Shown here one piece after another: positions 5,697-24,126 of a stretch of 24,126 nt of DNA. This DNA comes from an uncultured Bdellovibrionales bacterium. GTDB lineage: Bacteria; Bdellovibrionota_C; UBA2361; SZUA-149. The stretch spans positions 1 through 24,126 of the forward strand of contig CBDUGV010000029.1 of NCBI GenBank assembly GCA_965366815.1. Direction: 5' to 3'. The position numbers and the translations under genes were made by a program. The notes below the pieces were generated by a model. That model was not told where the DNA came from and did no database searches. It saw nothing but the letters and a program-made list of their open reading frames with translations. Every line of letters starts with the position of its first letter. The stretch's first letter is position 1.

Positions 5697-5730
5697 GATT
5701 GTTACTCCTTCAATACCTATTACTCAGAAT

Positions 5731-6571: not shown

Positions 6572-6600
6572 TTGATGCCAATCCTCAAAAAGATTACAAT
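6572..6600 (+). promoter_or_regulatory. candidate sigma70-type promoter (TTGATG - 17 nt - TACAAT) for the 6635 gene
   Basis: -35 TTGATG at 6572-6577, a 17-nt spacer, and -10 TACAAT at 6595-6600, about 35 nt upstream of ATG 6635. Confidence 0.3.
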
Positions 6601-6634
6601 GTAACTTAGTTAGGAATTTTTCTCGATACGGTGG

Positions 6635-7426
6635 TTGAATATGCGCCAAGGTGCCCTTTTTCAGAGATTCGAATTGTTCTCTGCTGCAGCCACGATTGCG
6701 GCCCATGCCAATGCTCCGCTAGACGGATTTCGTCAACGAGACGTGAGATTCATAATAGAATTATTCACGAACTGGGTTGAGACGATCTTCGATGGCAGCG
6801 TGATGGATCTCAAGAACACACAGGTGTCACGCTATCTCGACGATCTGGCTGCCGATGGCTATGCGCGGAAGATGAGTAGGAAGGGCCGTCCGTATTACAA
6901 GCTCTTGCGAATCGGCTTGATTGAATTGCTTTCTCGGCTCACACCTGGTCCACGATACGTGCAACCGGAGCAATTCTTTTTCCTCTACTACTTTGTGAAC
7001 AATTATCGTCAGCGGCTTTTTCAAATGGTCGAGGATGAGGGGAAGCAGTTTCCATTGGCGCTCAAACTAGAAGTAGAAACCCTGCTAGACGTCGATGCCC
7101 TCATTCGCCATCAGCTTCAGTACGCGGAATTAGAGTTACGCAAACTCGAGGACCGAATCAATGATTCGCTCAAAGGGGGCAAGTTGGCGAGCAAGCTTTT
7201 TGCAGAAGGCGGCGAGCCTGCAGAGGTCGCACAGCAAGTTGAGCAGCGCTATCCCTATGAGCTCAATAGTCAGAAACCCTTGAGTGAACTCATTTCAGAA
7301 GTTCCTGAAGACATTGGTCGCTGGGAGTTAGAAGTTGGGGCTTTTCGGCGAGTCGAGGATCTCTGGAATCCAACTCGCAGTATGTTGCAGACGTATATAC
7401 GGACATTAAAGGGGCTTACTCCATAG
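6635..7426 (+). CDS. hypothetical protein, 263 aa, divergent from the PspA gene; possible winged-HTH-like segment
   Basis: Clean ORF with weak RBS GGTGG. The segment SRYLDDLAADGYARKMSRKGRPYYKLLRIGLIEL looks like a wHTH recognition-helix/wing. The C-terminal half is predicted coiled coil. Confidence 0.5.
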   Translation: MNMRQGALFQRFELFSAAATIAAHANAPLDGFRQRDVRFIIELFTNWVETIFDGSVMDLKNTQVSRYLDDLAADGYARKMSRKGRPYYKLLRIGLIELLSRLTPGPRYVQPEQFFFLYYFVNNYRQRLFQMVEDEGKQFPLALKLEVETLLDVDALIRHQLQYAELELRKLEDRINDSLKGGKLASKLFAEGGEPAEVAQQVEQRYPYELNSQKPLSELISEVPEDIGRWELEVGAFRRVEDLWNPTRSMLQTYIRTLKGLTP

Positions 7427-9075: not shown

Positions 9076-9987
9076 CTAAGAAGTGCTGTCGTCCGTAGAG
9101 GTCGTAGTGCTGCTAGTGGATGCACCCTGTGCACAGCTCAGCGTTACGTCAGCTACCACATCGTCAACCGTAGTCGTTCCAGTTAAGTTGACAGTATCCA
9201 GCACAGAATCAGTAACTGTTCCAGTCCCTGTTAGGCTGATAGCGAGATCGCTCGGTTGAATATCAACTCGTCCAATCGCTGAGCCAGTGCTGTCGACGGT
9301 AACCGAGGCTACAAAAGAGACCTCGTTGTCGCTGTTGCTATCGCACAACTCAGAAATTTCACAAGGCGAGGCGGTTTCACTGCGAAACATAGTTACGGTA
9401 AAGCTATCATTCGAATTGGACTGGCTAAATACATCGACGTTACTTAGCGTTACGTCCATCGAAGGAATGCCGGTGGTGCTTCCATCAGATTCGGTTGCCC
9501 GGGTGGAGATGTTCAGTGTGCACTGATCTACATCGTTATCTCGCCCAGTTATGGTAAAGCGATCAGAGATTGAGGTGTTACCAGCCCGATCCCGAGCAGT
9601 GATTACAAAGGTAGCTGGAAGACCCGTTGCGAAAGCGTCTTGCAAAATAAACTCATCGACGAATAAAGAGGCTGGGAAATCCAAATAGTCGACGATCTTT
9701 TCAAAGCGCGTTGCATTCGGACGTCGAATCCAGATAGATGTGAAAATTCCATCGGCAAACACACCTTGCTCGACGAGGTCATCTACACAAAACCATGAAA
9801 TGAAGAACCCCGCAGTGGCAGAAGTTGGGTGTGAGATTTGGCAACGCGGCGCAGTGCCATCACCACCTCCGCCATAGCGAAATCCGCCGAAATCCTGAGT
9901 CCGTTGCGCCTGTGCAGACGTGGTGAGGGAAGCTAGCAACAGTGCTATGCTGCTGAGGTACAGAAAGCCCACTTTTCTGTTCGTCAT
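9076..9987 (-). CDS. secreted hypothetical protein with signal peptide and Thr/Ser/Asp/Val-rich beta-strand-like C-terminal half
   Basis: Signal peptide LYLSSIALLLASLTTSAQA. A Gly-rich linker follows, then repeated TVT/VTD motifs suggest an Ig-like or adhesin-like fold. Confidence 0.55.
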   Translation of the reverse strand: MTNRKVGFLYLSSIALLLASLTTSAQAQRTQDFGGFRYGGGGDGTAPRCQISHPTSATAGFFISWFCVDDLVEQGVFADGIFTSIWIRRPNATRFEKIVDYLDFPASLFVDEFILQDAFATGLPATFVITARDRAGNTSISDRFTITGRDNDVDQCTLNISTRATESDGSTTGIPSMDVTLSNVDVFSQSNSNDSFTVTMFRSETASPCEISELCDSNSDNEVSFVASVTVDSTGSAIGRVDIQPSDLAISLTGTGTVTDSVLDTVNLTGTTTVDDVVADVTLSCAQGASTSSTTTSTDDSTS

Positions 9988-10030
9988 GTTTTTTTCCTAC
10001 TAGATAGTAATTAAACAATAAATCTGTTTC

Positions 10031-10813
10031 TTAAGATTCGCCGCCAGGCAGCACATTGAATGCCGGAACACTCAAGCCGTCGTCTGCCGCACTTCCCATT
10101 ATAACCTCTATACCGTCACTATAGCCATCATCATCTGAGTCGCGATCGGTAGGTGAAGTGCCGTTAAGTGCTTCTATGTCGTCAGAAAGCCCATCGCCAT
10201 CTAAATCGGGAGGACCAGCGCCAAATCGCTCAATTCCATCCGCTAAGGGTGGATTGATTCTTGATGGGCGGCTTGAAGCGTTCAAGGGATCGGACTCGGC
10301 CACGAGTTCTAAGGCATCTGTGTACCCGTCTCCGTCGGTATCCGGATCATTGTGATCAGTTCCGATTGATCGTTCAAATGCAGTGCCAATGCCATCCAAA
10401 TCAGCGTCAGAATCAACCGATACGGCTGCAAGGAGCCGAGATTGGTTAAGCGGGCTCGGCGATAAACTCGCGTTGAGTGGATCGCCGGTATTGATAACGA
10501 ACTCCAGACCATCGGCGAATCCGTCCTCATCCGTATCGGATTTGGTCGGATTTAAGAGAAAAGTACTTTCCAGTAAATTAAACAAGCCATCGGCGTCGTC
10601 ATCTGTGTCATCACTGCCCGCGTCATCATCAGAATCCCCGGAATCATCGCTTCCCGAGCCGTCGTCAGTGGTGTCGTCAGTCGTTCTCGCCGCCTGTCCG
10701 CCGAACACCACATCATCTGAAAGTGAGCACTTGTTGGCCCCGAGCAGCAGCAGCGCCAAACAGAGGAGAAGGAGTTGAAAGAAAGGACGATTTGAATTGC
10801 CGAGGAAACCCAT
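10031..10813 (-). CDS. secreted calcium-binding protein with thrombospondin type-3-like (DxDxDGxxDxxE) repeats
   Basis: At least 5 Asp-rich loops: DTDEDGFADGLE, DPDTDGDGYTDALE, DLDGDGLSDDIE, DSDDDGYSDGIE and SDDSGDSDDDAGSDD. The signal peptide starts at MGFLG (ATG 10811-10813). The track's longer ORF to 10912 probably over-extends. Confidence 0.65.
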   Translation of the reverse strand: MGFLGNSNRPFFQLLLLCLALLLLGANKCSLSDDVVFGGQAARTTDDTTDDGSGSDDSGDSDDDAGSDDTDDDADGLFNLLESTFLLNPTKSDTDEDGFADGLEFVINTGDPLNASLSPSPLNQSRLLAAVSVDSDADLDGIGTAFERSIGTDHNDPDTDGDGYTDALELVAESDPLNASSRPSRINPPLADGIERFGAGPPDLDGDGLSDDIEALNGTSPTDRDSDDDGYSDGIEVIMGSAADDGLSVPAFNVLPGGES

Positions 10814-10910
10814 GCTGGTAAAGTAGCGGTGTTCCCTAGGGGCAGCAAGCAAATTTTGAGCAATATAGCGCAGCTTGCTAGGGTGAAAGAAAAACACACA
10901 CATATTCCTC

Positions 10911-11996
10911 ATGAAACCCGCCGGAAATCAGTTACTTGCCGAATTTACGCATTGTCGCTCAACACTGTTGCTCGATACCTCCGAGCTTGTTTCTGTGCTC
11001 GAACGGGCAATATCGGCCGCTGGATTGCATATTGTCGAAACCAGCTGCAAACATTTCGAACCACATGGTGCGACAATCCTCGCGCTGATCAGCGAATCAC
11101 ACGTGGTACTGCATACCTATCCCGAGGCAGATCATCTCTCAGTCGATATTTTTACCTGTGCCGGAGATCTAGGACCGGCACACCAGGTGCTTCGCAATCT
11201 CCAGAAGGAACTCGCTCCTGGAAGTATCCGTACGGCTGAGGTGAAAAGAGGCGCGATGTTAGATGTGAGTCGACCAGGTTGGGTGCAGTTGACTTCAACA
11301 GATGGCATTGATGTGCGTTTGCAAATTGCCGAGTGCTTGCATTCGGCACAATCTGAGTTTCAGAAGATAGAAGTAGTTCGCAGCGAGCAATTTGGCACGA
11401 TGTTGGTAATCGATGATCACCTGCAACTGGCCAGTGCCGATGCTGGGCTCTACAACACTTGCTTGATACAACCACTTTGTCAGCTCGGTGCATCGTTTGA
11501 GAATGTTCTGTTGCTTGGTGCGGGGGATGGCGCATTGGCAACGCAAGTGTTGCAGGAAGAGCCTACTGAAATACAAGTGGTGGATATCGATCCAGTCGTC
11601 GGACAGATATGCCGCGAGTTTTTCCCAGATCTCGTTCAGTCGGCATTTGATGATACACGATGCCAATTCCACTACATAGACGCACTTTCGTTCTTAGGGC
11701 AGAGGGCCTTTGAGCGACACTACGATACTGCGATTTACGATCTAACGATGCATCCAGAAGCATTTACCAAGAAAACGCGAAGGGAGTATTTGGGGGAACT
11801 ATTCTCGGTTTTGGAACAGAGCATGAAACCAGGCGCACTATTGAGTCTTCAGTGTTGTAGCAGTCACGACGTCGAGACTCGCCGTATGATTGAGGAGTTG
11901 CTTTTAGTTTGTTTCGAACAGCACTCGTTTCACGAAGCATTTATTCCCTCACTGTGTCGACCCTGGTTGTTTGCTACCGCAGGTGTCGCTCGTTAG
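10911..11996 (+). CDS. bifunctional S-adenosylmethionine decarboxylase (class 1a, pyruvoyl) - aminopropyltransferase (spermidine-synthase family) fusion
   Basis: Residues 1-115 match the SpeH-type AdoMetDC (HIVETSCKHFEPHGATILALISESHVVLHTYPEADHLSVDIFTCAGD, including the ES self-processing site). Residues 150-361 match the SpeE fold (VLLLGAGDGALATQVL, VVDIDPVV, AIYDLTMHPEAF). Confidence 0.8.
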   Translation: MKPAGNQLLAEFTHCRSTLLLDTSELVSVLERAISAAGLHIVETSCKHFEPHGATILALISESHVVLHTYPEADHLSVDIFTCAGDLGPAHQVLRNLQKELAPGSIRTAEVKRGAMLDVSRPGWVQLTSTDGIDVRLQIAECLHSAQSEFQKIEVVRSEQFGTMLVIDDHLQLASADAGLYNTCLIQPLCQLGASFENVLLLGAGDGALATQVLQEEPTEIQVVDIDPVVGQICREFFPDLVQSAFDDTRCQFHYIDALSFLGQRAFERHYDTAIYDLTMHPEAFTKKTRREYLGELFSVLEQSMKPGALLSLQCCSSHDVETRRMIEELLLVCFEQHSFHEAFIPSLCRPWLFATAGVAR

Positions 11997-12056
11997 TAGG
12001 TGATGGCTCGACGGGCTTCTATTGCTAAGAGCTAGTAATTTGGGCAGTATATCTCT

Positions 12057-12575
12057 ATGGAAAATCTTTTTAACAGCGTGCCGGAAGACTCTCGAGTTTG
12101 GGTATTTGGGGCTTCAACTGATTTTACTGAAGCTCAGATTGCCCGTGCACGAGAACTTCTCGACAGCTTCATGAGCGAATGGAACGCCCACGGTGCACAG
12201 GTTATCGGGGAGTATGCGATTTTAGAGTCTCGGTTCATTGTCGTTTCGGCCAGTAGCGCCGGTGCCCAAACCTCCGGTTGCTCAATTGACTCGATGGCGC
12301 GGACCGTGCGCAATGGTCTGGCCGAAGTAGGGGTTCAATTTGCCGATTTGTCCGACATTTTCTTTCGGGATCCGAACCTCGATGGCAGCGCAGCGGTTCG
12401 AACGATGAACCGCAGTGATTTTTCAAAGTTAGTTGCAAGCGGCAAAATCACGGATAGCACTATGGTGTTTGATCCAAGTGTGCAGTCGCTAAGCGAATTT
12501 AAACAGCGCTGGGAACGACCGTTTGCAGAATCCTGGCATGCACAGCTATTCCCCCGATCGACAAATGCGTCCTGA
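12057..12575 (+). CDS. hypothetical protein (172 aa) in the polyamine operon
   Basis: ORF 60 nt after the fusion gene and 14 nt before the DUF2130 gene. No recognised motif. Confidence 0.45.
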   Translation: MENLFNSVPEDSRVWVFGASTDFTEAQIARARELLDSFMSEWNAHGAQVIGEYAILESRFIVVSASSAGAQTSGCSIDSMARTVRNGLAEVGVQFADLSDIFFRDPNLDGSAAVRTMNRSDFSKLVASGKITDSTMVFDPSVQSLSEFKQRWERPFAESWHAQLFPRSTNAS

Positions 12576-12589
12576 TGTAGAGCACTTCC

Positions 12590-13771
12590 ATGTCTGACAA
12601 AATAGTCTGCCCAAGTTGCGAATATGAAATCGAGATAACGGAGGCGATCTCTTCTCAGCTTCGACAGAAGCTCAAGAAGCAGTATGAGGCAGAACAACGC
12701 TTGCTCGAAAAGAAGTTTGCCGAACAGCTTGAAAAAGAGGTTGCTCAGACGCGTGCTGAGGCAAGTGAAAAAGCAGCAGCGAAAGCGATGAGCGATGTCG
12801 CCGTAGAGTTGAAAGACCTTCGAGAGCAGTTGGGTGAGAGTAGAGAAAAACTCAGTAAGGCGCAGGAGTTTGAACTACAACTGCGTAAGGAAAAGCAAGC
12901 TCTCGAAGATGCAAAACGTGAGTTCGATTTGAAGTTGAATCGACAGCTCGATCAAGAGCGAGAAAAGATTCGCAAGTTGAGCAAACAGGAATTCATCGAG
13001 GAGCACTTACTAAAAGACGCTCAGAAAGAGAAAGTAATCAACGATCTTCGTGAGCAGATCTCTGAACTGAAGCGCAAATCGGAAGTGAGCTCTCAGCAGC
13101 TCCAGGGAGAGGTGCTTGAAGAGCAGTTGGAGCGCATACTTGCAGTTCAGTTTCCGTATGATGAGATTCAACCAGTTCCCAAAGGCGTTCACGGGGGGGA
13201 CGTTCTGCACCATGTGAATGATGCCGCAGGTGTGCGCTGTGGAACGATACTCTGGGAATCGAAGCGCACCAAGACTTGGAGTGACCTATGGCTTCCGAAG
13301 TTACGAGACGATCAACGAGCGGCTAAAGCCGAAGCAGCAGCAATTATCAGTATCGAATTGCCGCGTGACGTAAAGACATTCGCCTTTGTTGATACCGTCT
13401 GGGTGTGTAATTGGAACTGTGCGCTTGGCCTTGCTACCGCACTGAGGAATTCATTGATCGAGGTCTCTCAGGCAAAGCGTTCAATTGAAGGGCGTCAAGG
13501 TAAGATGGATCAGATTGTCAGCTATGTTTCTGGGCCGGAGTTCCGTCAGCGAGTTGAAGGAATCGCCGAAGCCTTCATGACCATGCGAAACGATCTAGAA
13601 GCTGAGAAGCGGGCCCTACAGAAACATTGGGCGAAACGGGAGAAGCAATTGGATCGAGCGATGACCAGCGCATCTGGTCTCTATGGGGACCTGTCAGGCA
13701 TCGTCGGGGCCAGTTTACCGGAGGTTGATGCCTTTGCATTGCCCGATCCAGAGGAAGTCGAGTCCCAGTAG
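12590..13771 (+). CDS. DUF2130-family protein: N-terminal CPSC zinc-ribbon half plus long coiled coil, and a C-terminal PD-(D/E)xK restriction-endonuclease-like domain (RmuC-like architecture)
   Basis: MSDKIVCPSCEYEIE, then about 170 aa of K/E/Q-rich heptads. The C-terminus has GGDVLHHV...GTILWESKRTKTW (D...ExK), FVDTVWVC and a terminal acidic tail. Confidence 0.7.
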   Translation: MSDKIVCPSCEYEIEITEAISSQLRQKLKKQYEAEQRLLEKKFAEQLEKEVAQTRAEASEKAAAKAMSDVAVELKDLREQLGESREKLSKAQEFELQLRKEKQALEDAKREFDLKLNRQLDQEREKIRKLSKQEFIEEHLLKDAQKEKVINDLREQISELKRKSEVSSQQLQGEVLEEQLERILAVQFPYDEIQPVPKGVHGGDVLHHVNDAAGVRCGTILWESKRTKTWSDLWLPKLRDDQRAAKAEAAAIISIELPRDVKTFAFVDTVWVCNWNCALGLATALRNSLIEVSQAKRSIEGRQGKMDQIVSYVSGPEFRQRVEGIAEAFMTMRNDLEAEKRALQKHWAKREKQLDRAMTSASGLYGDLSGIVGASLPEVDAFALPDPEEVESQ

Positions 13772-13904
13772 AGCAGTCTTAGGTCGGATTTGAGGCATAA
13801 AAATTGCTAATTTCGCCTGATTTAAGCGTAAATTCCCGCAATCTTTAGATAAATCACTAAATGTTCTCGTGGTTTCTGTCGATAGTAGAATCGAGGAAAC
13901 TATA

Positions 13905-14528
13905 ATGCGAGACGCGCCAATAAAATTGCGAAAGTTCGTAGTTGACCAGGAGTTGGTCCTGCACAGCTTGCTGTACATTCTTGCTGGGCTCTGCATTATA
14001 TCCCTGATTCTCCTGATAGCCTATTTCGTCCGCGCACGACGAATGAAGCAAGTCGCCGATAAGGTAGATGAACTTGGCTCACGGTTCTACCCAGTGCTCG
14101 AGCGGGTGCAAGCGGTAGAAGAGCATGCAGTTGACTATGCCAACTCGCTTGATTCCGAATCACTTGTTTGCTTGGACGAATTGCAGAAGATGGTTCGCAC
14201 CGTCAAGACAGTGCTGTTCGAGGTCGAGAGTCGACTCGAGTCTGGCGATTTTCGCGAATTCAAAGATGCTGAATTATTCTTAACTGGGAAACACCCTCGT
14301 CAGCTCGGAACTGAACAAAATTTCGATGGTGGTGAATTGAGTCTGCGGATCGATCCTGATTGGGAGCGCCATATGGAACGATTGTTGCAGATTATCGGTA
14401 AGAGTGTCTCGCATGCGTCACTTGCGGCAACTGAAATCGGCGTTCCGAAGCGGCGGAAACGAAAAGCCACTTTGATCTCGCTCTTTCGAGCTGGCATCAA
14501 AATGGATAAAGGCCCCTACCAAGCCTAG
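13905..14528 (+). CDS. single-pass membrane protein, hypothetical
   Basis: ATG 13905 preceded by GAGGAA at 6-nt spacing. TM segment LVLHSLLYILAGLCIISLILLIAYFV. The track start at 13869 is likely too early. Confidence 0.5.
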   Translation: MRDAPIKLRKFVVDQELVLHSLLYILAGLCIISLILLIAYFVRARRMKQVADKVDELGSRFYPVLERVQAVEEHAVDYANSLDSESLVCLDELQKMVRTVKTVLFEVESRLESGDFREFKDAELFLTGKHPRQLGTEQNFDGGELSLRIDPDWERHMERLLQIIGKSVSHASLAATEIGVPKRRKRKATLISLFRAGIKMDKGPYQA

Positions 14529-14538
14529 TGACCGGACA

Positions 14539-16143
14539 CTAGTAGTCCATACTTTCTTCGTAATACTGAACCAATACCTGATTATCAAGCCGATTGGCCT
14601 GAACCGGTAGTTTTGACATATCAGTATCGAAGACGAAAAGAGACGCTAGTATCTCAGCATTGAGATAGCGGGTTGGAACCTTTATCTGGATAGACTTCGG
14701 ATCAATCGTTCGATTGGCGGCCATTTGAAAGCCCCAGGGACCAAACGAGGGGACGTACACTGTGTAGGGAACAACCGCTGGAAAGACTTCGCTCAGTGTT
14801 TGATGAATCGACCAGAACGCTTTTCGTGCAAGGTAGGGCGAGGAAGATTGAGTCACGAGTATCCCGTCGGCAGTGAGTCGTTTCTTTAGAATTTCATAAA
14901 ACTCTTTACTGTAGAGCTTTCCTAAAGAAAGATCATTCGGGTCAGGTAGATCGATGATTATCGTAGAAAACAGTGTGGTTGTATTCTCAGCAAACTTATA
15001 TGCATCTTGAATTTCAATCTGTACTCGAGGGTCCCGCAAGGCATCTTGGTTGAGCGCACGTAGATCGGCGTTATTGAGTGCGAGTTCGATCATAGCTTTG
15101 TCGAGATCCACCAGGGTTATCTTTTGAACTTCCTGATGCTTCAGTATTTCCCGCACAACGAGTCCGTCTCCACCACCGAGCACCAAGACCTGCTCCGCTT
15201 TTCCGGTGAGCGCAATCGGAATGTGGGTAATACTTTCGTGATATCGATGTTCGTCGAGAGAGCTGAACTGTACATTCCCATTCAAAAAGAGTCGCAGATC
15301 ATCCTTGAATTTCGTGATGACGATCCGTTGATAGGCGGTTTGCTTGCTATAGATAATTTGGTCTTGGTAGATAAATCGCTCAAAGAAACCTACTAGAGTG
15401 AAGGAATAGACGAACCCAACCAACAACAGAATCGCTGAAACACCGGCAGCAAAATAAAATCGACCAACATTCGGGATTCGAGTCCGAAATTCATGAATGT
15501 TGAAGAAGGCAACCACGATGTTGAGCAAGCCGATGAGAAACGCTGTTTTCATCAAACCGAGATAGGGGAGGAGCACGAGCGGAAACAGCAGAGAGGCTAG
15601 TAAGGCACCGACATAGTCGAAACTCAGAATATTTGCCAATGTGTCCTTCAAGCTGCCATTGCTCTTGAGAATGCGAGTGACAACCGGAATCTCAAGGCCT
15701 GCGAGGATACTAATGCAAGCTACCAATAGGAAGGCAGTGGGATAGTACAGCTCGGTCAAGCTGTAGCTGAGATAGAGTATTGCTGCCGACATCCCCCCAA
15801 TCAAACCGATCGCCGTTTCGATAAATACAAAGTGACCAATGAGATTCGTGTTGAGAAACTTTGAGAGGTAAGAACCGACTCCCATGAAGAACATGAAAAG
15901 GCCGATGGTGAGCGAAAAATGGAGTATGCTGCTTCCAAGAAGATAGGATGAAAGGCTGCTGATCAGCAATTCATAGACAATCGCACAAATGGAAATCAGC
16001 AAGATGGAGCCAAACAGCACGCCTATCTGTCGCTGCGTGAGCACTTCCTCCGATCCCGCTGGAGGAAGGGCACCGTGAGCGGTTTCGTCTGAGGGCAGGC
16101 TCGCATTTGAAGGTGGAGTGCTATGGCTGGGCTTTGACTGCAT
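14539..16143 (-). CDS. speE: membrane-anchored polyamine aminopropyltransferase (spermidine-synthase family with N-terminal about 7-TM domain)
   Basis: The N-terminal 230 aa are multi-TM. The C-terminal has the SpeE signatures VLVLGGGDGLVVREILKH, KITLVDLD and IIDLPDPNDLSLGKLYSKEFY. ATG 16141-16143 lies 5 nt after the helicase stop. Confidence 0.85.
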   Translation of the reverse strand: MQSKPSHSTPPSNASLPSDETAHGALPPAGSEEVLTQRQIGVLFGSILLISICAIVYELLISSLSSYLLGSSILHFSLTIGLFMFFMGVGSYLSKFLNTNLIGHFVFIETAIGLIGGMSAAILYLSYSLTELYYPTAFLLVACISILAGLEIPVVTRILKSNGSLKDTLANILSFDYVGALLASLLFPLVLLPYLGLMKTAFLIGLLNIVVAFFNIHEFRTRIPNVGRFYFAAGVSAILLLVGFVYSFTLVGFFERFIYQDQIIYSKQTAYQRIVITKFKDDLRLFLNGNVQFSSLDEHRYHESITHIPIALTGKAEQVLVLGGGDGLVVREILKHQEVQKITLVDLDKAMIELALNNADLRALNQDALRDPRVQIEIQDAYKFAENTTTLFSTIIIDLPDPNDLSLGKLYSKEFYEILKKRLTADGILVTQSSSPYLARKAFWSIHQTLSEVFPAVVPYTVYVPSFGPWGFQMAANRTIDPKSIQIKVPTRYLNAEILASLFVFDTDMSKLPVQANRLDNQVLVQYYEESMDY

Positions 16144-16148
16144 ACGAC

Positions 16149-19100
16149 CTATTTATCAGCTCGTTCCAGACGAAAGGCAAGCACTTCCTTAGTTTTTCTT
16201 ATCTCATTAGCCGCAAGAGGACCGCGATAATGGAGCGAGGTTTCTTCTCGGTGATAGCGAGAGTGTTCTTTGCGCACGGCCGAGAACCAGTTAAAGGAAC
16301 CTTCGATCATTTCTTTCTCATCGATGAAGATCGATTTGTTGTGTATGCCGTCAACCATGAATAGCCCAGCGCCCGCTTCGACAATCTGCGCTCGCCCGAT
16401 CGATGGGTTCTCTCGGAGGGCTCCCGTTTCAGGGTCGATATCCAAATGTGAATCAGTATAGACTTTGACTTCAACACCTCGAGCAATCGTTTCTCGGATC
16501 AATGTATCGATTGAATCGGCCTCGATTGCTGCTCTAGAAATTTGCGGAGAAATGATGATAAGTTCTCTTTGAGCAGATCGAAAGGACTCAACGAGCGCAG
16601 CTCGATGTTGAGCGAGAGAACTAAGACGCGTAATTTGCTTTTCTTTAAATCCAGATCGCGGCGGCAATTCGATTCCATCCAGCTGGTTCCCTTCAACATC
16701 GCGAAACAGGTAGTGGGCCAGGAGTCCAGAGGGAGCTTTTCTGCTTCGCTCAAATATTTCCATATCTCCAATCGTCAGGAAGCTATCTCGCGCTCGAGAG
16801 ACCGCGACGTTGAGCATATTCACACCACGATCAAAGAAGTAGTTCGAATCGGGGATACTTCGATCATATACTGGGGAGAAAATCATTATCCTGCGTTGGG
16901 CCCCCTGCATCGAGTGGACGGTTCCAATAGCAAGTCTCGGAAAGTCCTTTCGCAGCAGGAGTTCGAGTTGGTGTCGCTGTGCGGCGAAAGGGGTGATAAT
17001 TGCTACGATATCCTTATCGATTGTTTCTCCAGAATAGAATTCTTCCAAATCTTGTTTTTTATTGCGAATCCATGAGGCAATTGCTTCTGCCTCCATCACA
17101 TTGGCCTTACTTGTTCCAACCTGCTCACAGGTTCCACCGATATGCCAGTAGCCAAATGCTGGTACAATTCGCTTCTCTGCCGAGGGCCGTCGGGGGTGGA
17201 GGCGGCCGCGGTAGGCAAGTTTATTGCAAAAGTCAATTACTTCAGGAACTGAACGCCGATGCTCGGTAAGAAAAACGCCAATGGTCGAATGGCCATCGGC
17301 GGAAGTATCAATTATCGGACAGGCGTTCTGGGCAAGCTGCATGATATTACCAGAAGAGGCCATCAGTCCACGCTTGCGAACTGCCTTCATCTGTTTTTTG
17401 TTGCCGCGTTTAACGATTTTAAACGTCGTCAAGTTCTGCTCGTCTACATGTTTTGGGATGCTCCAGATCGGTTCAAGCTGAAGGGTATCGCCGACAACAA
17501 TTGCCCGTTTCGCCAAAGCAAAGCTTGCCGCTCCAACTTCTGGTGCGATCTGTCCAGCCTCATCAACAATCAAGAGGTCGATGAGGGGCGAACCATCTTC
17601 GGCCAGTTCACCAAAGAACCTCGCTGCTGTACTCATCGTTGAAACAAAGCAAGGAGTGACCATGGCACGCCTTCTCCAATCCACGGCAGATGCTTTGAGC
17701 CAGTTGGAATGAGTCGTTTCTTCGAGTCGTGCAGCTTCTTCTTGTGCTGCGAGTAGCCAACGACCTTCCCAATAGTGGGTGCTTAGTTGGAAAATACGAT
17801 GTCGTCTACTGAGGTCTAGTTTCGCATTGGCAATATAGAGTGATTTGTAATCAATCGGAGTTTTTAATCCAACATGAGTCTTGACCCAACCCAGCGCTGA
17901 CTCAAAGCGGGTTGCAAAAATATCGCCATTTAGTCGCGCCGTCTCTCTTTGAATTTCTTTTTGAAAGAAGCGAATTGCCTGCTTCGTGGTTAGCTTCTTC
18001 CCCACAAGAGTTGAACTTCGCTGCAAATACTGTTTTTGAGCTTCTCGAATGTAGGCCCAGTTCTCCATTTGCTTTGAGAGACCCTCACCGTCGCCTCGCT
18101 CGTAGTGAATGCCCATCGCCTCTGCATCCTCAGCACGGGCTTTGGAGGGACAGTAGGTGCCGTAGCTCTTTACGCCCGGAAGCCAGTGCCCAGCAAGTGG
18201 ACCCTGCTTGGTTTTCGCCTGAGCAAACGATTCGATAATGTTGGTCACTGCTTGGTTGGTCTCTGCACATGCCAAGATAATCGGTGGTTTCCCGCCATCA
18301 TGTGCGGCCTTTGCCCAAAGGGAGGCAATGATACTTTGTAGTAACGTCGTTTTTCCCGTGCCTGGTGGACCGCTTACCGCGAGAATCGTACCGCTTCCTA
18401 AGGAAAAATAATTGTGAACGGCGTTGCGTTGCGATGGCGAAAGGGGGAAGGCATGTTCAAACTGACCCAGATGGGCCTTAGCACCTTTCGCAAGCGAATA
18501 GGTCGTTCGTTTAACGTATTTGCGATCTTTCTCTTTGATTTGAACCAGATTACTCAACACGCCCGAGTGTCGACGTCCCTGAAGTACTTGTTGATAGATT
18601 CGTCGGGGATTGGCCGTCGCACCCTGACCACTGGAGTCGAGAACAACCGCGGCAAACTTTCTTTTTCTATAGTCGGGGAGGGTAAACTCAATGAAGTCAC
18701 TGCCGCACGCAGCTTTAAACAGAGCCTTCGCTTCTTTCCAATACTGCGGCCAAGTCATAGATTCTGAGAAGGGAAAACGAAGCAGGTGTTGCTCAAACTC
18801 GTCCAAGGAGCCGATAATAACCGTCTCATCTGATACCATCGGTTCAAGATAGGCTCGTGGTATCCAAGGCAGAGGCCTCTTTGGCACAAGCAGCGTGCCG
18901 TCTTTGGCAATCTCCGCTGGAATCCAATATGCATCAACAAATCGGGGTGTATTTGCCACTAGGGGATCCGCTTCAGAAATGCGCTGAAGCCGTAACGGGC
19001 AAATTGCGACTGAGATATTCGATTCTACGTCACTCGCGAACTCACCTCTCGAAGCATCTCTTCGTTTCCCCTTGTTTCGTTGCTTCTCTTGCTGCTTTTG

Positions 19101-19406
19101 TTTCTTTTTTAGCTCTTCAAGGCATTTCTCAGAGCATCGTTCATTGATCAGGTCGGCGAAGGCGGTTTCTGCCCCACGACTAAAAACGTCCGAACCATTG
19201 ACCTCCATTCGCTGTGAATCGACGAGGCTGCGTTGCCAGTAGCGTACCACTGCCGCAACGTCTTTGTCGGGCAGCTTTACGTTCGTATCTGCTTTTTTGT
19301 GATTGGGGCGACGCTTTTTCACTGCACTGCAGTTTTGTAACGAAGATCCGACAGCCAAGCTGTGCGTGAACTTCGTTGAGTATCTAGCTCGCGACAGCTG
19401 CTGCAA
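16149..19406 (-). CDS. Upf1/DNA2-like SF1 helicase fused to C-terminal single-HKD phospholipase-D-family nuclease (type II Mokosh MkoC-like architecture). Start uncertain: TTG 19404-19406 or an internal GTG/ATG (for example ATG 19206-19208)
   Basis: Walker A GPPGTGKTT (18345-18371). Walker B LLIVDEAGQ (17550-17564). Motifs V/VI GTVHSMQGAQRRIMIF and NMLNVAVSRARDSF. HKD motif HNKSIFIDEKEMIEGSFN (16290-16343) has the exact HxK-x4-D-x6-GSxN spacing. Confidence 0.85.
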   Translation of the reverse strand: MQQLSRARYSTKFTHSLAVGSSLQNCSAVKKRRPNHKKADTNVKLPDKDVAAVVRYWQRSLVDSQRMEVNGSDVFSRGAETAFADLINERCSEKCLEELKKKQKQQEKQRNKGKRRDASRGEFASDVESNISVAICPLRLQRISEADPLVANTPRFVDAYWIPAEIAKDGTLLVPKRPLPWIPRAYLEPMVSDETVIIGSLDEFEQHLLRFPFSESMTWPQYWKEAKALFKAACGSDFIEFTLPDYRKRKFAAVVLDSSGQGATANPRRIYQQVLQGRRHSGVLSNLVQIKEKDRKYVKRTTYSLAKGAKAHLGQFEHAFPLSPSQRNAVHNYFSLGSGTILAVSGPPGTGKTTLLQSIIASLWAKAAHDGGKPPIILACAETNQAVTNIIESFAQAKTKQGPLAGHWLPGVKSYGTYCPSKARAEDAEAMGIHYERGDGEGLSKQMENWAYIREAQKQYLQRSSTLVGKKLTTKQAIRFFQKEIQRETARLNGDIFATRFESALGWVKTHVGLKTPIDYKSLYIANAKLDLSRRHRIFQLSTHYWEGRWLLAAQEEAARLEETTHSNWLKASAVDWRRRAMVTPCFVSTMSTAARFFGELAEDGSPLIDLLIVDEAGQIAPEVGAASFALAKRAIVVGDTLQLEPIWSIPKHVDEQNLTTFKIVKRGNKKQMKAVRKRGLMASSGNIMQLAQNACPIIDTSADGHSTIGVFLTEHRRSVPEVIDFCNKLAYRGRLHPRRPSAEKRIVPAFGYWHIGGTCEQVGTSKANVMEAEAIASWIRNKKQDLEEFYSGETIDKDIVAIITPFAAQRHQLELLLRKDFPRLAIGTVHSMQGAQRRIMIFSPVYDRSIPDSNYFFDRGVNMLNVAVSRARDSFLTIGDMEIFERSRKAPSGLLAHYLFRDVEGNQLDGIELPPRSGFKEKQITRLSSLAQHRAALVESFRSAQRELIIISPQISRAAIEADSIDTLIRETIARGVEVKVYTDSHLDIDPETGALRENPSIGRAQIVEAGAGLFMVDGIHNKSIFIDEKEMIEGSFNWFSAVRKEHSRYHREETSLHYRGPLAANEIRKTKEVLAFRLERADK

Positions 19407-19680
19407 TTATAATGCAGATTCCCAAATTGGTCAGCCCAGCGAGTATCGCCAATGCAATATTGTTATTCGCAATGTCGGCACTCAAATTCCCTGGTGTCAA
19501 CAAATCGATGACCTTATAGGAAAAGAATGCAACCAGGATTCCAATCGCGCTATAGACGAATGTGGCAATCACATCATTGAGTACCGTGTTTCCAGTAACC
19601 GCAAATTCCGCAGCATATGCGGGTGTCGCAAAGACAAGTAGCGCAGTACTCAAAAAAGCGATCGGTAGATATCTGTTCAT
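19384..19680 (-). CDS. DUF350-family small membrane protein (YjfL-like)
   Basis: 98 aa with an N-terminal hydrophobic/signal segment and the conserved VIDLLTPG motif, followed by two more TM helices. RBS GAGGAG 5 nt upstream of ATG 19680. Confidence 0.75.
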   Translation of the reverse strand: MNRYLPIAFLSTALLVFATPAYAAEFAVTGNTVLNDVIATFVYSAIGILVAFFSYKVIDLLTPGNLSADIANNNIALAILAGLTNLGICIIIAAAVAS

Positions 19681-19733
19681 CTCTTGCTCCTCTCAGGTCA
19701 TTTCCCTGTTCCGTAAAGACTAGTTTGTACTAT

Positions 19734-19973
19734 TTATTTTCCACCACGTGGGCCACCGCCGCGACTACTTCTGCCATAAAAATAACTGCGATGAGAGCGG
19801 CGGCAATTGCCAAATGAGTCTCGAAGATGTGCTGGGCAACTCCGCTTCATTTCAGATGTCAATTTGGCATTGCGTTCAGAGGACATCCCCCATCCTCCAT
19901 GCGATGCCATCACTGGAAGCAATACCGTACTGCCGAGCAATGCTCCTCCAAAGATTTTACTTAGCGGTCCCAT
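19734..19973 (-). CDS. possible small protein (79 aa): hydrophobic N-terminus with R/G-rich tail; weakly supported
   Basis: It is the only ORF in a 353-nt gap between DUF4178 and DUF350 and lies on the operon strand. No good SD. Confidence 0.25.
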   Translation of the reverse strand: MGPLSKIFGGALLGSTVLLPVMASHGGWGMSSERNAKLTSEMKRSCPAHLRDSFGNCRRSHRSYFYGRSSRGGGPRGGK

Positions 19974-20033
19974 AGTTCTATTAAATCGCCTCTATTCCCG
20001 TTCTACAAACACAGGGTTGCCTCATGGTATCGC

Positions 20034-21374
20034 CTAATCATCATCGGGCAGCATCTGCAATATAAGATAGCCCAGAAGCAAAATACCGATTACGGCATAT
20101 AACGGATTCAATGATTTAAATCGCCGGATCGAGAATCCCAACCCTAAGGTAGTGAGGAAGGCTATCAGGTAGTACCTTGAGAGAATGACCCCCTCATAGA
20201 TCTGTAGGCGAAGCCATCCGGTTGATGCAGTCCCTTTATCGACAAAAAAGCGTGGGTAGTAAGTGCCTGGAGTATCCAAACGAAAATAGCTCTTCTGTTG
20301 CAGATCGGATTCAGACCAAGCTCCGTCACTGTCTCTACCAGATTCGCGCCAAAAATCATCTTCAAACGCGTTAATCACCTCTTGACTCTTGTCCAGGAGT
20401 TCAACGCCACCCCAGGCCCAGGAGTTGTCTTTTATCGCAGTCGTCAGTTTTAGCAAGTGAACCTTGCCGGTCGCCGTTAGCTCTATTGGTTTATGAGTGA
20501 AGCCCTGTTCTGGGATACCACTAAAATCTACTCGAAGGTCGGCAATTTGCTTCCCGCTCTTTGTGCACGAGTATAGAAAGAGCACACAGCAAACGGCCGC
20601 AGCGCCAAAGAATGCAGCAGACCATTTCCTATACTGCTTCTCGACAGCCTGTGCGCGAAGCTCTTCATCAACAATCTCGGTCAAATTGAAAGCTCTGGCA
20701 ACATCGAGCCTTTCAATCGGCGTTGATTTATAAAACTCGACTTCCTCTATCTGATCGCTGCCTTCTTTTTTTCTCCACTCTACTGAATAGGTGGTAAACC
20801 CAAGTCGATACTCGGCTGACTCAGTGATATCGTCAATCTTGGGCACCCAGGTAAATTCACCTTCAAAGTGCATAATTTTCGATTTTGCAAACTCGAGGAT
20901 TCGCTGAGGCTTGTGGTCGGTATCGAGATTGAGATGAGTGTCGCCTTCCTTTGGCATACCTGGATTGGTCGGCGTAAACGCTTCTGCAAGGGAATATCCT
21001 TCGATATCTTCACAAAGATATAGGTATTCCTTGTTCTCACCGACGAGAATCCATTGATCGAATTTCCAGACCTCGTTGTAGTAGGCTGAGTCCTCCGGGT
21101 CCCATTCTCGGAGTCGACTGTTGAAACAGATTCTTCCGATTACCTGATATTTCTTGCCGTTAAACGTTCCAATCAATCCCAGTTTGATAAACGAGGCCGG
21201 GGAAAAGAATTTTGGCTTTAGGGTTGAGATGAGAGCAGCTTCTTCGGACGTCGCGACGTCGAGAACCGCCCCGCAGGATTTGCAGGTTACAACTTCCGGA
21301 TCAGCCAGAGCGGGGTCGAGAGGGCTAGTGCAGCTCGGACAAACAATCGCCTTGGTCTGAATATCGCTCATCAA
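20034..21374 (-). CDS. DUF4178-domain protein (large paralog) with N-terminal zinc ribbon and TM segments
   Basis: Zinc ribbon CPSC...CKSC at the N-terminus. DUF4178-like core YQVIGRICFNSRLREWDPEDSAYYNEVWKFDQWILVGENKEYLYLCED. An internal TM segment (AAFFGAAAVCCVLFLY) and a C-terminal TM pair are present. Confidence 0.7.
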   Translation of the reverse strand: MMSDIQTKAIVCPSCTSPLDPALADPEVVTCKSCGAVLDVATSEEAALISTLKPKFFSPASFIKLGLIGTFNGKKYQVIGRICFNSRLREWDPEDSAYYNEVWKFDQWILVGENKEYLYLCEDIEGYSLAEAFTPTNPGMPKEGDTHLNLDTDHKPQRILEFAKSKIMHFEGEFTWVPKIDDITESAEYRLGFTTYSVEWRKKEGSDQIEEVEFYKSTPIERLDVARAFNLTEIVDEELRAQAVEKQYRKWSAAFFGAAAVCCVLFLYSCTKSGKQIADLRVDFSGIPEQGFTHKPIELTATGKVHLLKLTTAIKDNSWAWGGVELLDKSQEVINAFEDDFWRESGRDSDGAWSESDLQQKSYFRLDTPGTYYPRFFVDKGTASTGWLRLQIYEGVILSRYYLIAFLTTLGLGFSIRRFKSLNPLYAVIGILLLGYLILQMLPDDD

Positions 21375-21405
21375 TCAAACGTCGCCATCTGAGTACAGGT
21401 TGTCA

Positions 21406-22014
21406 TTACCTAATTTCGATCTGGTCGATGGAAATTTCGCGACCGATTGAGAGATTGATTTCGTCGGGTGTAAACTCAATACTAACCAATTGCCCTCCTG
21501 CATTTCCATCGATGCAGTTCACCGACATTCCAGGAGTAATTGAGAAATACAATTCACCGATCCCACCAGCAATTTTTGCTACGTTACGCTCCGTGACAAA
21601 AACCGACATATCGTTAACTGGTATCATCGATCCGACGGAGATGTCGTCAAAGGCAGGGACCGGGGAGGTGAGTGTTTCTTTCTCGAAGGCAGTAAACTCA
21701 CCTTCGTCTTCCTGCAGCCAAAGCTTCTTGCCATTCTCAAACGCCAGAAACCATTCATCCCAGAAGCCATCATCGTAGGTGTAGCGCAGGCGGCCGACTG
21801 ACTTGAACTGCTCGCCGGCAATTGTTCCCGATGCTCCGATAGAAAAAATTGACTCGAAATCTGCCAGCTTCGTTTTCTCTCCAGAAGGGTCGAGACCCTC
21901 CGGGCTCACAGAGCAGGTTTGCCCACAATATTGGCAGATGACGACCTTTGAGAAGCGATTCTCCACACTCAGTGGAGCACCGCAGGAAGGACAATTATAT
22001 TCCTGGCTACTCAT
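21406..22014 (-). CDS. DUF4178-domain protein (small paralog) with N-terminal zinc ribbon
   Basis: Zinc ribbon CPSCGA...CQYCGQTC. Hallmark core RLRYTYDDGFWDEWFLAFENGKKLWLQEDEGEF. Lies 21 nt after the SPFH gene stop. Confidence 0.75.
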   Translation of the reverse strand: MSSQEYNCPSCGAPLSVENRFSKVVICQYCGQTCSVSPEGLDPSGEKTKLADFESIFSIGASGTIAGEQFKSVGRLRYTYDDGFWDEWFLAFENGKKLWLQEDEGEFTAFEKETLTSPVPAFDDISVGSMIPVNDMSVFVTERNVAKIAGGIGELYFSITPGMSVNCIDGNAGGQLVSIEFTPDEINLSIGREISIDQIEIR

Positions 22015-22035
22015 TCGCTGTGATGTCCCTTTTTC

Positions 22036-23079
22036 TTATAGGTCGGAAAGTATTTGAGCCTTCTTCTTGTCATATTCTTCCTGACTAATCAGTTCGGCGT
22101 CGAGCATATCCTTGAGTTTCTTAAGACGCGCGGTCGGATCATCGGCAGCTGCTGCGGGCGCCGCCGCTGCAGCTCCTGCTGCCGCAGCTTGTCCTTGTTG
22201 TCCGCCCATCATCCCAGAGGTAAAGGCTTGACCGAGGCCAACGCCCGCGCCCAAACCAACTCCGGCTCCTGCCATTCCACCTTCATTCTTGGCGGCGTCA
22301 CGCAGTGCTTCAAGCTGTTGTAGCTGAGCAAAGTCGACTCCCGCTCGTTTGGCTGCTGCAGCTTCTGCCGTGAGGTCGGCAATTCGACCGATTCTCGTTT
22401 TGGTATCTTGATCGAAGTCTGTGCCTTCGATTCGAAAATCGCTCATATTGAAGCCAAGCTTCTCAAAATCCGGAGCGACCAAACCACTCAGTTTAGCAGA
22501 CAGTTCAACGCGATTCTTGTCTATTTCGGCATAACTCAGACCAGCCTCAGCCAGGGTATCTGCAAGTTGCTCAAGAAAGCGTTCGGTAATTACTCTTCTT
22601 GCTTCCTCAACTGGAAACTCTTTTCTTCCCCCGACGATGTTTACAAAAAACGATTTCGGATCGGTAACACGAAACGTGAAATTTCCGTGTGCCCTGAGGC
22701 TCACCGGAAAGTTATAAACCGGGTCGTCATATTTTACAGGAGAGCTGGTGCCCCATTTTTGATTGAGGAACTTGGTCTGCCAGAAAAAGTAGAGGCCGAC
22801 TTTGTGCTCACTCTCGAAGCTCTGCATGAACTTCGTCAGAGTAGTGATAAACGGAATGTTGGCAGTGGAAAGCTCATACATCCCTTCGTTCAGGTGGACA
22901 GCTTCGATTTTTCCTTCGTAGAGAAAAATAACGCCTTGCCCAGGCTTTATTAAAAGTTTGGAGGCGTTCTTAATTTCGTCTCCACTCTCACTCCACAACT
23001 CGAATAACTGAGATGGGTCTGCATTCTCCCATTCAATTACCGAACGAAGTTGTCCTTTTACTCTATCCCAAAGCGCCAT
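22036..23079 (-). CDS. SPFH/band-7 (Band_7_1, virion-core-protein-like) domain protein with Gly/Ala-rich linker and C-terminal SHOCT domain
   Basis: The N-terminal 250 aa follow the Band_7_1 pattern (IEWENADPSQLFELW...EIKNASKLLIKPGQ...LRAHGNFTFRVTDP). An AGAGVGLGAGVGLG linker follows. The C-terminus DPTARLKKLKDMLDAELISQEEYDKKKAQIL is a SHOCT motif. Confidence 0.8.
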   Translation of the reverse strand: MALWDRVKGQLRSVIEWENADPSQLFELWSESGDEIKNASKLLIKPGQGVIFLYEGKIEAVHLNEGMYELSTANIPFITTLTKFMQSFESEHKVGLYFFWQTKFLNQKWGTSSPVKYDDPVYNFPVSLRAHGNFTFRVTDPKSFFVNIVGGRKEFPVEEARRVITERFLEQLADTLAEAGLSYAEIDKNRVELSAKLSGLVAPDFEKLGFNMSDFRIEGTDFDQDTKTRIGRIADLTAEAAAAKRAGVDFAQLQQLEALRDAAKNEGGMAGAGVGLGAGVGLGQAFTSGMMGGQQGQAAAAGAAAAAPAAAADDPTARLKKLKDMLDAELISQEEYDKKKAQILSDL

Positions 23080-23354
23080 AGTGTCCTCGTAGAAGTAAAA
23101 CAGTCGTTTTCATTTGTATAACAAAGTTTCGGACAATTACAGGAGAAACTTAGGCTTAAAGATCCCTTCGTGTTTCTGATCGAATGTGATGGAATTAGTC
23201 AGGGGTTTTAGCGTGCAGTTGCTAAAGTGCATTCCCGAGTCTGTCGATGGGTTATTTAGGGTGTATACGGAGAGTTTCTAGCTAAGTGGCTCGATCTGTC
23301 GAGATACGGCGCAATCTGTTGAAAATTCGGTTGGTTTTTTTGAGGAAGAGTACG

Positions 23355-24126
23355 CATGCCAGCTCATTCAAAAAACGCGAGCTTCGCGGTAGGCGAGGTC
23401 ATCGCTGAGCGCTACAAAGTTTCTAAAGTACTATCTCGAGGTGGAACCGGCGAAGTCTATGCCGTAAACGATCTCTCGTTAGACAATCAAATCATTGCCT
23501 TAAAGCTACTCTACCCTCATCTCCTGAGAGATGAGCGCGTCTACACCAGATTCAGGAACGAGGTCTTGCTAACTCGGGCATTGCGACACCCAAATATTAT
23601 CCAGATGTATGATCTCGGTCGAGATGATGCCGGACGAACATTTCTAACAATGCAGTACTCAGAAGGTGCAAGTCTCGGTCGGATGCTGCGACGTCTCACC
23701 AAGGAGCGACTCACGTTCAAGGAGATTGCTTACATTATTTGTGAAGTACTGAGTGGACTGAGCTATACGCATGAAGCAGGGGTCGTCCACCGAGATCTAA
23801 AGCCAGATAATCTACTTGTATCGACAAGCGCCGATATTCGAATAGGTGATTTTGGTACGGCACGAGCCCTCTGTCGGCCCGGAGCAACGAGGCCAGGTGA
23901 ACGAATTGGTACACCACTGTATATGTCGCCTGAGCAGTTTCGCGGGGAACAAGTAGATGCCCGTACAGATCTGTATGCGCTCGGCCTACTAGGGTTTGAG
24001 TTAGCGACGGGCGTTCCACCATTTCGAGGTTCAGACGTCATGACCGTCGGGCATAAGCACTGCAGTATGCCGATTCCAGATATGCGCCGTGCGAATCGAA
24101 ACCTCACCCATTGGTTTATCGAATTT
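23355..24126 (+). CDS. Hanks-type serine/threonine protein kinase, 3'-truncated at window edge
   Basis: RBS GAGGAAGAG 5 nt upstream of ATG 23355. Contains GxGxxG (SRGGTGEVY), VAIK-like ALKLL, catalytic loop HRDLKPDN, DFG and SPEQ motifs. No stop before the window end. Confidence 0.85.

Follow-up and report, generated by a model that had tools for sequence, protein, structure and literature searches.

A PspA-free SPFH/SHOCT, DUF4178 and DUF350 membrane aminopropyltransferase operon with an inserted Mokosh gene, next to an AdoMet decarboxylase fusion, in an uncultured Bdellovibrionales bacterium

Background

We describe here a polyamine-related membrane gene cluster in a stretch of 24,126 nucleotides from an uncultured Bdellovibrionales bacterium (GenBank assembly GCA_965366815.1, contig CBDUGV010000029.1), the whole of which we call the window. 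Two convergent sets of genes occupy positions 10,911 to 23,079, and three separable things can be distinguished among them: a six-gene operon on the minus strand that ends in an aminopropyltransferase fused to seven transmembrane (TM) segments (TM-SpeE); a plus-strand pair, in which a fusion of S-adenosylmethionine decarboxylase (AdoMetDC) and aminopropyltransferase is followed by the gene for a protein of 172 amino acids (aa); and a set of accessory nucleic-acid enzymes. The window is a PspA-free band-7/SHOCT member of the polyamine neighbourhoods, associated with the phage-shock protein (Psp) response, that have been published by Ravi et al. 2024 (mSystems; PMC11237479), and it joins this known cluster type to an inserted and likewise already known defence gene, mkoC. 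The reading that we favour, with moderate confidence, is a scaffolded membrane aminopropyltransferase system that would receive decarboxylated S-adenosylmethionine (dcSAM) from the neighbouring fusion, accompanied by a separate gene pair and by cargo genes. The initial annotation had presented all of these genes as one convergent two-operon module for polyamines and membrane stress. Every gene and domain that it listed is present where it had been placed, and profile searches confirm the DUF350, DUF4178 and Band_7_1 assignments, that of the longer DUF4178 protein by way of homology.

Such loci raise a broader question. Membrane-fused SpeE enzymes, Rv2601 of Mycobacterium tuberculosis and relatives in Shewanella and Bacteroidota among them, are widespread, and one would like to know which substrates they aminopropylate and for what reason their genes accompany those for DUF350, DUF4178 and PspA or SPFH proteins. 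The present locus is no more amenable to biochemical test than the cultured examples. Within a single lineage it offers genomes with the full module, with sbcDC or Mokosh added to it, and with the module deleted, a natural series by which core genes can be told from cargo. The practical value of the analysis is corrective, in that the two presumed nucleases are not to be counted in a polyamine or membrane-stress mechanism.

A conserved six-gene operon on the minus strand

The minus-strand genes run in the order SPFH/SHOCT, short DUF4178 protein (DUF4178S), long DUF4178 protein (DUF4178L), a 79-aa gene, DUF350 and TM-SpeE, with the SPFH gene first and TM-SpeE last. A search anchored on TM-SpeE, with one genome per GTDB species, returned 14 loci, and an anchor search with homologs of the fusion added three more genomes from the lineage to which the window belongs. 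What was observed directly in these loci is which genes and motifs they have or lack and in what order the genes are kept (Table 2). The minus-strand order recurs in L018 and L022/L023, and also in a second lineage represented by L001/L108, at 46-79% protein identity, and because of this recurrence the arrangement is beyond chance. The six-gene unit is a real conserved operon, and the proposal that the module genes are co-conserved in other genomes holds for this strand.

The SPFH/SHOCT protein has, besides Band_7_1 and the C-terminal SHOCT domain, a Gly/Ala-rich hydrophobic linker; this linker, the counterpart here of the 2TM element of Ravi et al., is only weakly hydrophobic and was not called as a TM segment by a hydropathy scan. 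Its orthologs are 70-79% identical and occupy the same position in L001, L018, L019 and L108, and the family as a whole is large (1774 matches at E<=1e-20), unrelated contexts included. DUF4178S consists of an N-terminal CxxC...CxxC zinc ribbon followed by DUF4178, is 73-76% identical to its counterparts in L001 and L018, and gave no segment in TM prediction. DUF4178L, whose N-terminal half is homologous to the DUF4178S paralog, has a zinc ribbon, DUF4178, a TM helix, a domain of about 150 aa that is predicted to be non-cytoplasmic, and one or more C-terminal TM segments, the predicted TM segments lying at residues 253-271 and 424-442. Its match of 20 bits is below the Pfam cut-off of 25, and the ortholog in L001 reaches 34 bits.

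The next gene, of 79 aa (19734-19973, minus strand), had been overlooked by the initial annotation. Reading frames 46-54% identical to it fill the same gap between DUF4178L and DUF350 in L018, L023 and L001, and beyond the signal peptide the protein follows the pattern GWGxSSERN...CP.H.RT..G.CRR..RSYYY.RS..GGGPR.GK; it adds a small secreted component that had not been listed for this operon before. The DUF350 match covers profile positions 3-66 of 133, that is, a single repeat, and the orthologs are equally long. We considered whether this protein of 98 aa is a truncation caused by the insertion of mkoC and rejected the idea, as the orthologs free of mkoC are just as long, and it is again this half of the profile that they match.

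TM-SpeE had been described as tethered to the membrane, and the prediction of seven TM segments together with the match to NCBIfam PRK03612 (NF002956; 589 bits against a cut-off of 472) agrees with that description. Its catalytic domain aligns to Bacillus subtilis SpeE (1IY9) at 1.3e-36 with the LGGGDG and IDLPDP motifs kept, and the dcSAM motif, the catalytic Asp and the second Asp by which a canonical SpeE is recognised are all found in it. In 10 of the 13 more distant loci that have upstream sequence (Bacteroidota relatives), DUF350 lies directly upstream of TM-SpeE, the DUF4178 pair being present in 4 of 13 more distant TM-SpeE loci; one of them, L003 from Cytophagales, has DUF350, TM-SpeE and, downstream, DUF2617, and represents the mycobacterial type of variant.

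Nature has also supplied a deletion variant, in L019 (10001-12843) and L020 (3238-6080), where the fusion and the 172-aa gene converge straight onto SPFH/SHOCT and where TM-SpeE, DUF350, the 79-aa gene and both DUF4178 genes are missing.

The AdoMetDC-aminopropyltransferase fusion and its partner

The decarboxylase domain of the fusion scores 91.2 bits against TIGR03330 (cut-off 75.65), and the self-processing residues E62-S63-H64 are invariant, or nearly so, in 20 homologs, as are H68 and C83. To judge from this score and these residues the N-terminal half is a class 1b AdoMetDC, a class in which biochemistry would separate SpeD from neofunctionalised ornithine and arginine decarboxylases (PMC10407285).

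The transferase half is less conventional. GxGDG is invariant among 20 family members, as is the first Asp (D277), and the following motif reads DLTMHPE instead of D(S/L)TDP, so that Met280-His281 stands where the second Asp would be expected in all 20, as it also does in an alignment to SpeE of T. thermophilus. In human spermidine synthase Asp173 is the catalytic base and Asp176 holds the distal amine of the acceptor (PMC13619349). With its second Asp replaced the fused domain is not a canonical SpeE, and its scores against the NCBIfam SpeE equivalogs are all far under the cut-offs (for example, 124 against 260). We think that the fused transferase is probably active, on an acceptor that, because Met-His replaces the second Asp, would be bound differently from putrescine. 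The fusion represents a family of its own, in which the acceptor pocket is re-modelled.

In the window's lineage the 172-aa gene always comes directly after the fusion, and the two form a conserved pair. An alignment of the lineage's fusions was used to scan metagenomes and found 80 loci at 34-44% identity, with flanks of at most 10 kb per side and some contigs much shorter. Neither TM-SpeE, DUF350, DUF4178 and SPFH nor the 172-aa gene and DUF2130 occurred near the fusion in any of the 80 within the flanks available, and no consistent operon partner of the fusion family was found across them. The adjacency of the pair to the operon is therefore limited to one lineage, which also shares its flanking genes, and the two-operon link does not hold as a general module.

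Two further observations concern these families. The DLTMHPE fusion family is widespread in metagenomes as a stand-alone gene, in sources named as Syntrophales, Deltaproteobacteria and Ignavibacteria. In the 172-aa family the motif SGCSIDSM is invariant and the structure model, an alpha/beta one, is confident; one homolog, on a Bacteroidota-like contig (L026, 8001-10365), lies directly upstream of membrane genes in the order LemA-TPM-TPM.

How the operon may act, and its tie to the fusion

The scaffolding, the supply of dcSAM, the acceptor, the role in stress and the co-transcription of cargo are what we infer from the gene content and order described above. In the system that we envisage, the SPFH/SHOCT protein would form a scaffold under the membrane, tethered there by the two zinc-ribbon DUF4178 proteins and DUF350 in parallel to the YdjI-YdjG-YdjH arrangement of B. 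subtilis, and this scaffold would organise TM-SpeE. The decarboxylase domain of the fusion is a plausible source of cytoplasmic dcSAM, from which TM-SpeE would move the aminopropyl group onto an acceptor amine that its membrane domain would either hold or let pass. That acceptor may be a polyamine or a non-polyamine molecule of the envelope, and the outcome would be an altered surface charge or stability under envelope stress.

Several points weigh against this reading. The fusion is without module neighbours throughout the 80 metagenome loci, and the operon of L001/L108 has no AdoMetDC in its sequenced flanks (about 2.7 kb downstream in L001); the AdoMetDC profile used in that screen was made from fusion proteins only, which a divergent stand-alone SpeD could escape. 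The adjacency of fusion and operon may be simple synteny, since conservation extends to flanking genes as well (g10, g11, the kinase and FKBP/LarN). A membrane-fused protein resembling spermidine synthase is said to have made no spermidine in the 2019 work of Li and colleagues, which argues against simple local polyamine synthesis. The link to stress is one of guilt by association with PspA elsewhere; here PspA lies outside the operon and is not conserved nearby. Finally, it is spacing alone that suggests that mkoC is probably transcribed together with the operon.

Much of this evidence bears on an alternative that we regard as possible, if not likely, namely that nothing functional connects the two strands: the fusion, together with its 172-aa partner, would be a housekeeping polyamine synthase that lies beside the operon solely through the conservation of gene order in this lineage, and TM-SpeE would take its dcSAM from any AdoMetDC in the cell. 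Besides the solitary fusions of the metagenomes, which have no conserved partner, and the synteny of unrelated flanking genes, it would account for L019/L020, which retain the fusion and the 172-aa gene after the loss of TM-SpeE, DUF350 and both DUF4178 genes, and for L001/L108, where the operon exists apart from the fusion. Nevertheless, any aminopropyltransferase requires dcSAM, AdoMetDC genes recur with 7TM-SpeE/DUF350 operons in other phyla (PMC11237479), and the layout persists in three genomes at about 40% protein identity.

A Mokosh gene and other cargo at the convergent junction

Between DUF350 and TM-SpeE lies a helicase-PLD gene that the initial annotation had counted as a nuclease of the module. 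The protein matches the PADLOC MkoC profile PDLC03924 at 3e-286 (951 bits), and its Walker A (GPPGTGKT), Walker B (DEAGQ) and PLD (HNKSIFID, of the form HxK(x)4D) motifs are intact. By homology it is the type II Mokosh defence gene MkoC, and its annotation should read Mokosh type II. In type II Mokosh a Upf1-like helicase (N-terminal) and a PLD nuclease (C-terminal) are joined in a single protein, whose ATP-binding and PLD sites are both needed for defence (Millman et al. 2022, bioRxiv 10.1101/2022.05.11.491447).

The GTG start of mkoC is 59 nt past the DUF350 stop, its own stop is 5 nt ahead of the TM-SpeE ATG, and neither gap holds a terminator-like site. In L001, L018, L022 and L108 mkoC is absent, and DUF350 and TM-SpeE are direct neighbours. 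Because it is absent from every related locus, mkoC is to be regarded as an insertion into a pre-existing operon and not as one of its components. A repeat search around the gene for insertion scars gave chance-level matches only, and its GC content and third-codon-position GC (GC3) are the same as those of its neighbours, with no compositional sign of recent transfer.

The convergent junction proper, where the stop codons of the 219-aa gene (plus) and TM-SpeE (minus) are just 10 bp apart, is similarly variable. DUF2130 is found in two of the four lineage genomes, the window and L018, while the junction of L022 carries sbcDC and that of L019 is empty, and the 219-aa gene has an ortholog (46% identical) beside DUF2130 in L018 only. 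Within the DUF2130 family the Asp...Glu-x-Lys residues are invariant in 30 members, and PMC3424549 counts it, as a family of unknown function, among those of the PD-(D/E)XK type. A single-sequence AlphaFold2 model of the window protein has a predicted local distance difference test score (pLDDT) below 50 across the putative nuclease core, and sequence and profile searches of the PDB with it returned coiled-coil noise and no relative. DUF2130 with the 219-aa gene, sbcDC and mkoC are interchangeable cargo and not parts of the module. As a separate observation, DUF2130 of L018 (7064-8166) is spread over three reading frames on a contig where about 20 other genes look intact, which points to a pseudogene or, alternatively, to a local error of assembly.

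These findings make it improbable that the region is one integrated two-operon system, DUF2130 and helicase-PLD included, for local polyamine synthesis at the membrane under envelope stress, as had been proposed. All of the domains are indeed present, the entire convergent layout bar the helicase-PLD recurs in L018 at 42-79% identity, and an AdoMetDC beside a 7TM-SpeE operon is a published variant (PMC11237479). However, the helicase-PLD is a stand-alone defence system missing from all relatives, DUF2130 is missing from L019 and L022 and split in L018, and the fusion, whose acceptor pocket is non-canonical, has no link to the module in any of 80 other loci. The polyamine arm had also been called complete, which overstates it: the module has no diamine-forming gene such as ornithine decarboxylase, arginine decarboxylase or agmatinase.

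Might the whole region instead be an anti-phage island, in which SPFH, DUF4178 and DUF350 serve as a membrane effector or sensor of abortive infection together with Mokosh and a DUF2130 nuclease? MkoC, DUF2130 and SbcCD are three different nucleic-acid enzymes found at the junction across genomes, and Psp-type systems were originally defined by their response to phage. We nonetheless hold this to be highly improbable, given that PADLOC has no match for SPFH, DUF4178, DUF350, the 172-aa or the 219-aa protein, that PHROGs are uninformative for the module proteins, and that the operon sits in conserved chromosomal synteny with housekeeping genes (Lon, ClpXP, LGT, AhpC) and not in a mobile context. 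The lack of flanking repeats and of a distinct base composition for mkoC counts against it as well.

Set beside the favoured scaffolded system, a narrower idea concerns mkoC itself: that a Mokosh gene was captured in an SPFH/DUF350/aminopropyltransferase operon and is perhaps expressed under the same envelope-stress signal, the junction serving as a landing pad for DUF2130, SbcCD and MkoC. We regard this as rather doubtful. If true, it would hard-wire immunity at the level of nucleic acids to a membrane response resembling phage shock, and the co-transcription of mkoC is the sole window-specific reading that would be new.

Gene content of the window and of related loci

Coordinates and supporting matches are collected in Table 1, and the layouts of the related loci in Table 2.

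Table 1. Genes of the convergent region of the window
Feature	Position	Strand	Evidence
AdoMetDC-aminopropyltransferase fusion	10911-11996	+	AdoMet_dc 6.5e-26, Spermine_synt_N 4.6e-13, Spermine_synth 1.8e-17
172-aa protein, SGCSIDSM motif	12057-12575	+	no family match
DUF2130 protein: CxxC, long coiled coil, putative PD-(D/E)xK core	12590-13771	+	Pfam 7e-64
219-aa coiled-coil protein, one TM segment	13869-14528	+	no family match
7TM-aminopropyltransferase (PRK03612 type, TM-SpeE)	14539-16143	-	seven predicted TM helices, then Spermine_synth 1.4e-43
MkoC helicase-PLD	16149-19322 (or to 19406)	-	AAA_11, AAA_12, PLDc_2; PADLOC MkoC
DUF350, single repeat, signal/TM segment and 2 TM helices	19384-19680	-	Pfam 2e-10
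79-aa gene: signal peptide, two Cys, basic Arg/Gly/Tyr-rich tail	19734-19973	-	conserved reading frame
Long DUF4178 protein (DUF4178L)	20034-21374	-	Pfam DUF4178 8e-4, 20 bits
Short DUF4178 protein (DUF4178S)	21406-22014	-	Pfam DUF4178 1.5e-9
SPFH/SHOCT protein	22036-23079	-	Band_7_1 1.9e-39, SHOCT 4.5e-7

Table 2. Layout of the window and of related loci
Locus	Plus strand	Minus strand
Window	fusion, 172-aa, DUF2130, 219-aa	SpeE, MkoC, DUF350, 79-aa, DUF4178L, DUF4178S, SPFH
L018	as in the window, DUF2130 broken into three reading frames	as in the window, without MkoC
L022/L023	fusion, 172-aa, 123-aa reading frame	sbcC, sbcD, SpeE, DUF350, 79-aa, DUF4178L, DUF4178S
L019/L020	fusion, 172-aa	SPFH only, five intervening genes gone
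L001/L108 (second lineage; strand not assigned to columns)	no fusion	NfeD, SPFH, DUF4178S, DUF4178L, 79-aa, DUF350, SpeE, 220-aa protein, Pyr_redox_2

Rfam and tRNA scans of the window gave no match, and promoter and terminator scans did not rise above chance level. One promoter-like site, within DUF350, was set aside as accounted for by the DUF350 coding sequence.

On the side of the fusion, a divergently oriented pair (window 9076-10912, minus strand) encodes a 303-aa signal-peptide protein and a protein with TSP3 (calcium-binding) repeats, and is common to all four genomes of the lineage. The true start of the TSP3 gene is probably Met33, which would leave about 94 bp between the divergent starts. 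Beyond SPFH the lineage genomes have either a Ser/Thr kinase or FKBP/LarN; in the window the kinase reading frame (23344-24126, plus strand; HRDLKPDN and DFG motifs) is divergent from SPFH and runs off the end of the sequence, and with a 64%-identical ortholog at the same position in L018 it is a candidate regulator of the operon. Downstream of the operon, L001 (11654-13421) and L108 (14449-16216) encode the 220-aa protein and a flavoprotein of the Pyr_redox_2 family, which also matches Amino_oxidase weakly and may be the polyamine oxidase of Ravi et al. Further away in the window, a 435-aa reading frame (2436-3743, minus strand) without a family match overlaps a 195-aa frame on the plus strand, and its GC3 of 0.72, against about 0.5 in every other gene examined, may indicate foreign DNA or a mis-called frame.

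Relation to known systems

In the operons of Ravi et al. an enzyme resembling spermidine synthase, with a 7TM domain fused to its N-terminus, stands together with DUF350, a beta-rich DUF4178 protein and a PspA-CesT/Tir pair, and these operons occur in variants where that pair is replaced by DUF4247 and DUF2617, or by a band-7 protein with a 2TM element and a C-terminal SHOCT, the latter accompanied by an AdoMet decarboxylase as well as a polyamine oxidase (PMC11237479). These authors, citing Li et al. 2019, proposed that the systems monitor polyamines or aminopropylate other substrates, with altered membrane structure as the consequence (PMC11237479). The window resembles the band-7 variant in its 7TM-SpeE, DUF350 and DUF4178, in having SPFH-SHOCT in the place of PspA-CesT/Tir, and in the AdoMetDC nearby. 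It differs in that its AdoMetDC is encoded on the other strand, as a fusion with a second transferase-like domain, that it has no polyamine oxidase, that DUF4178 is duplicated with one copy membrane-spanning, and that it includes the 79-aa secreted protein and the inserted Mokosh gene, which is all that keeps DUF350 and TM-SpeE apart. The mechanism had been put forward as one with no direct experimental description; a comparative-genomics account exists in Ravi et al. 2024 (PMC11237479), and functional fusions have been published (PMC11107197).

There is neither PspA nor CesT within the operon. The window does encode PspA/IM30 (5731-6366; Pfam 6.3e-14), 4.5 kb beyond the left edge of the region considered here and in a separate three-gene unit, and PspA was not found in the sequenced flanks (2.7-10 kb per side) of L001, L018, L019 and L022. 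The unit itself (4311-6706, minus strand) places PspA between a 94-aa reading frame and a 461-aa protein of about nine TM helices that has no family match.

The M. tuberculosis cluster of the Rv2597-Rv2601 type, made up of DUF4178, DUF4247, DUF2617, DUF350 and a membrane SpeE, shares with the window DUF4178 and the core of DUF350 and PRK03612-type SpeE; the window has SPFH/SHOCT in place of DUF4247 and DUF2617. The PspA-associated context had also been likened to yjfIJKLMC of E. coli, and whereas the membership in the neighbourhoods of Ravi et al. stands, this likeness comes down to DUF350 (YjfL), a membrane protein found in both beside a polyamine-related enzyme. The module is without DUF2170, the PspA-family YjfJ, DUF2491, DUF1190 and the ATP-grasp YjfC, and its chemistry would be aminopropyl transfer as opposed to ATP-grasp ligation.

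For the fusion, the nearest parallel is with those of Ca. Pelagibacter, where both halves of AdoMetDC-aminopropyltransferase proteins are functional (Li et al. 2024, JBC; PMC11107197). The window protein has the same order, a class 1b AdoMetDC at the N-terminus and an aminopropyltransferase at the C-terminus, and differs in the DLTMHPE motif that is invariant in its family, the likeness being one of description, as the Pelagibacter proteins were not among the retrieved homologs. For mkoC, the domain architecture (an SF1/COG1112 helicase and a C-terminal PLD, with the ATPase and HxK motifs intact) is that of type II Mokosh, and the setting, embedded in a chromosomal membrane operon, is unlike that of Mokosh in defence islands.

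The proposed scaffold, lastly, has its model in B. subtilis, where YdjI, an SPFH protein that is itself soluble, depends on the zinc-ribbon membrane protein YdjG together with YdjH to get to the membrane, then recruits PspA there and works in a membrane-stress complex (Scholz et al. 2021; PMC8581546). Unlike pspA-ydjGHI, the window operon is without PspA, YdjH and TPM and has DUF4178, DUF350 and SpeE; as in pspA-ydjGHI, the gene for the SPFH protein is found next to that of a zinc-ribbon membrane protein.

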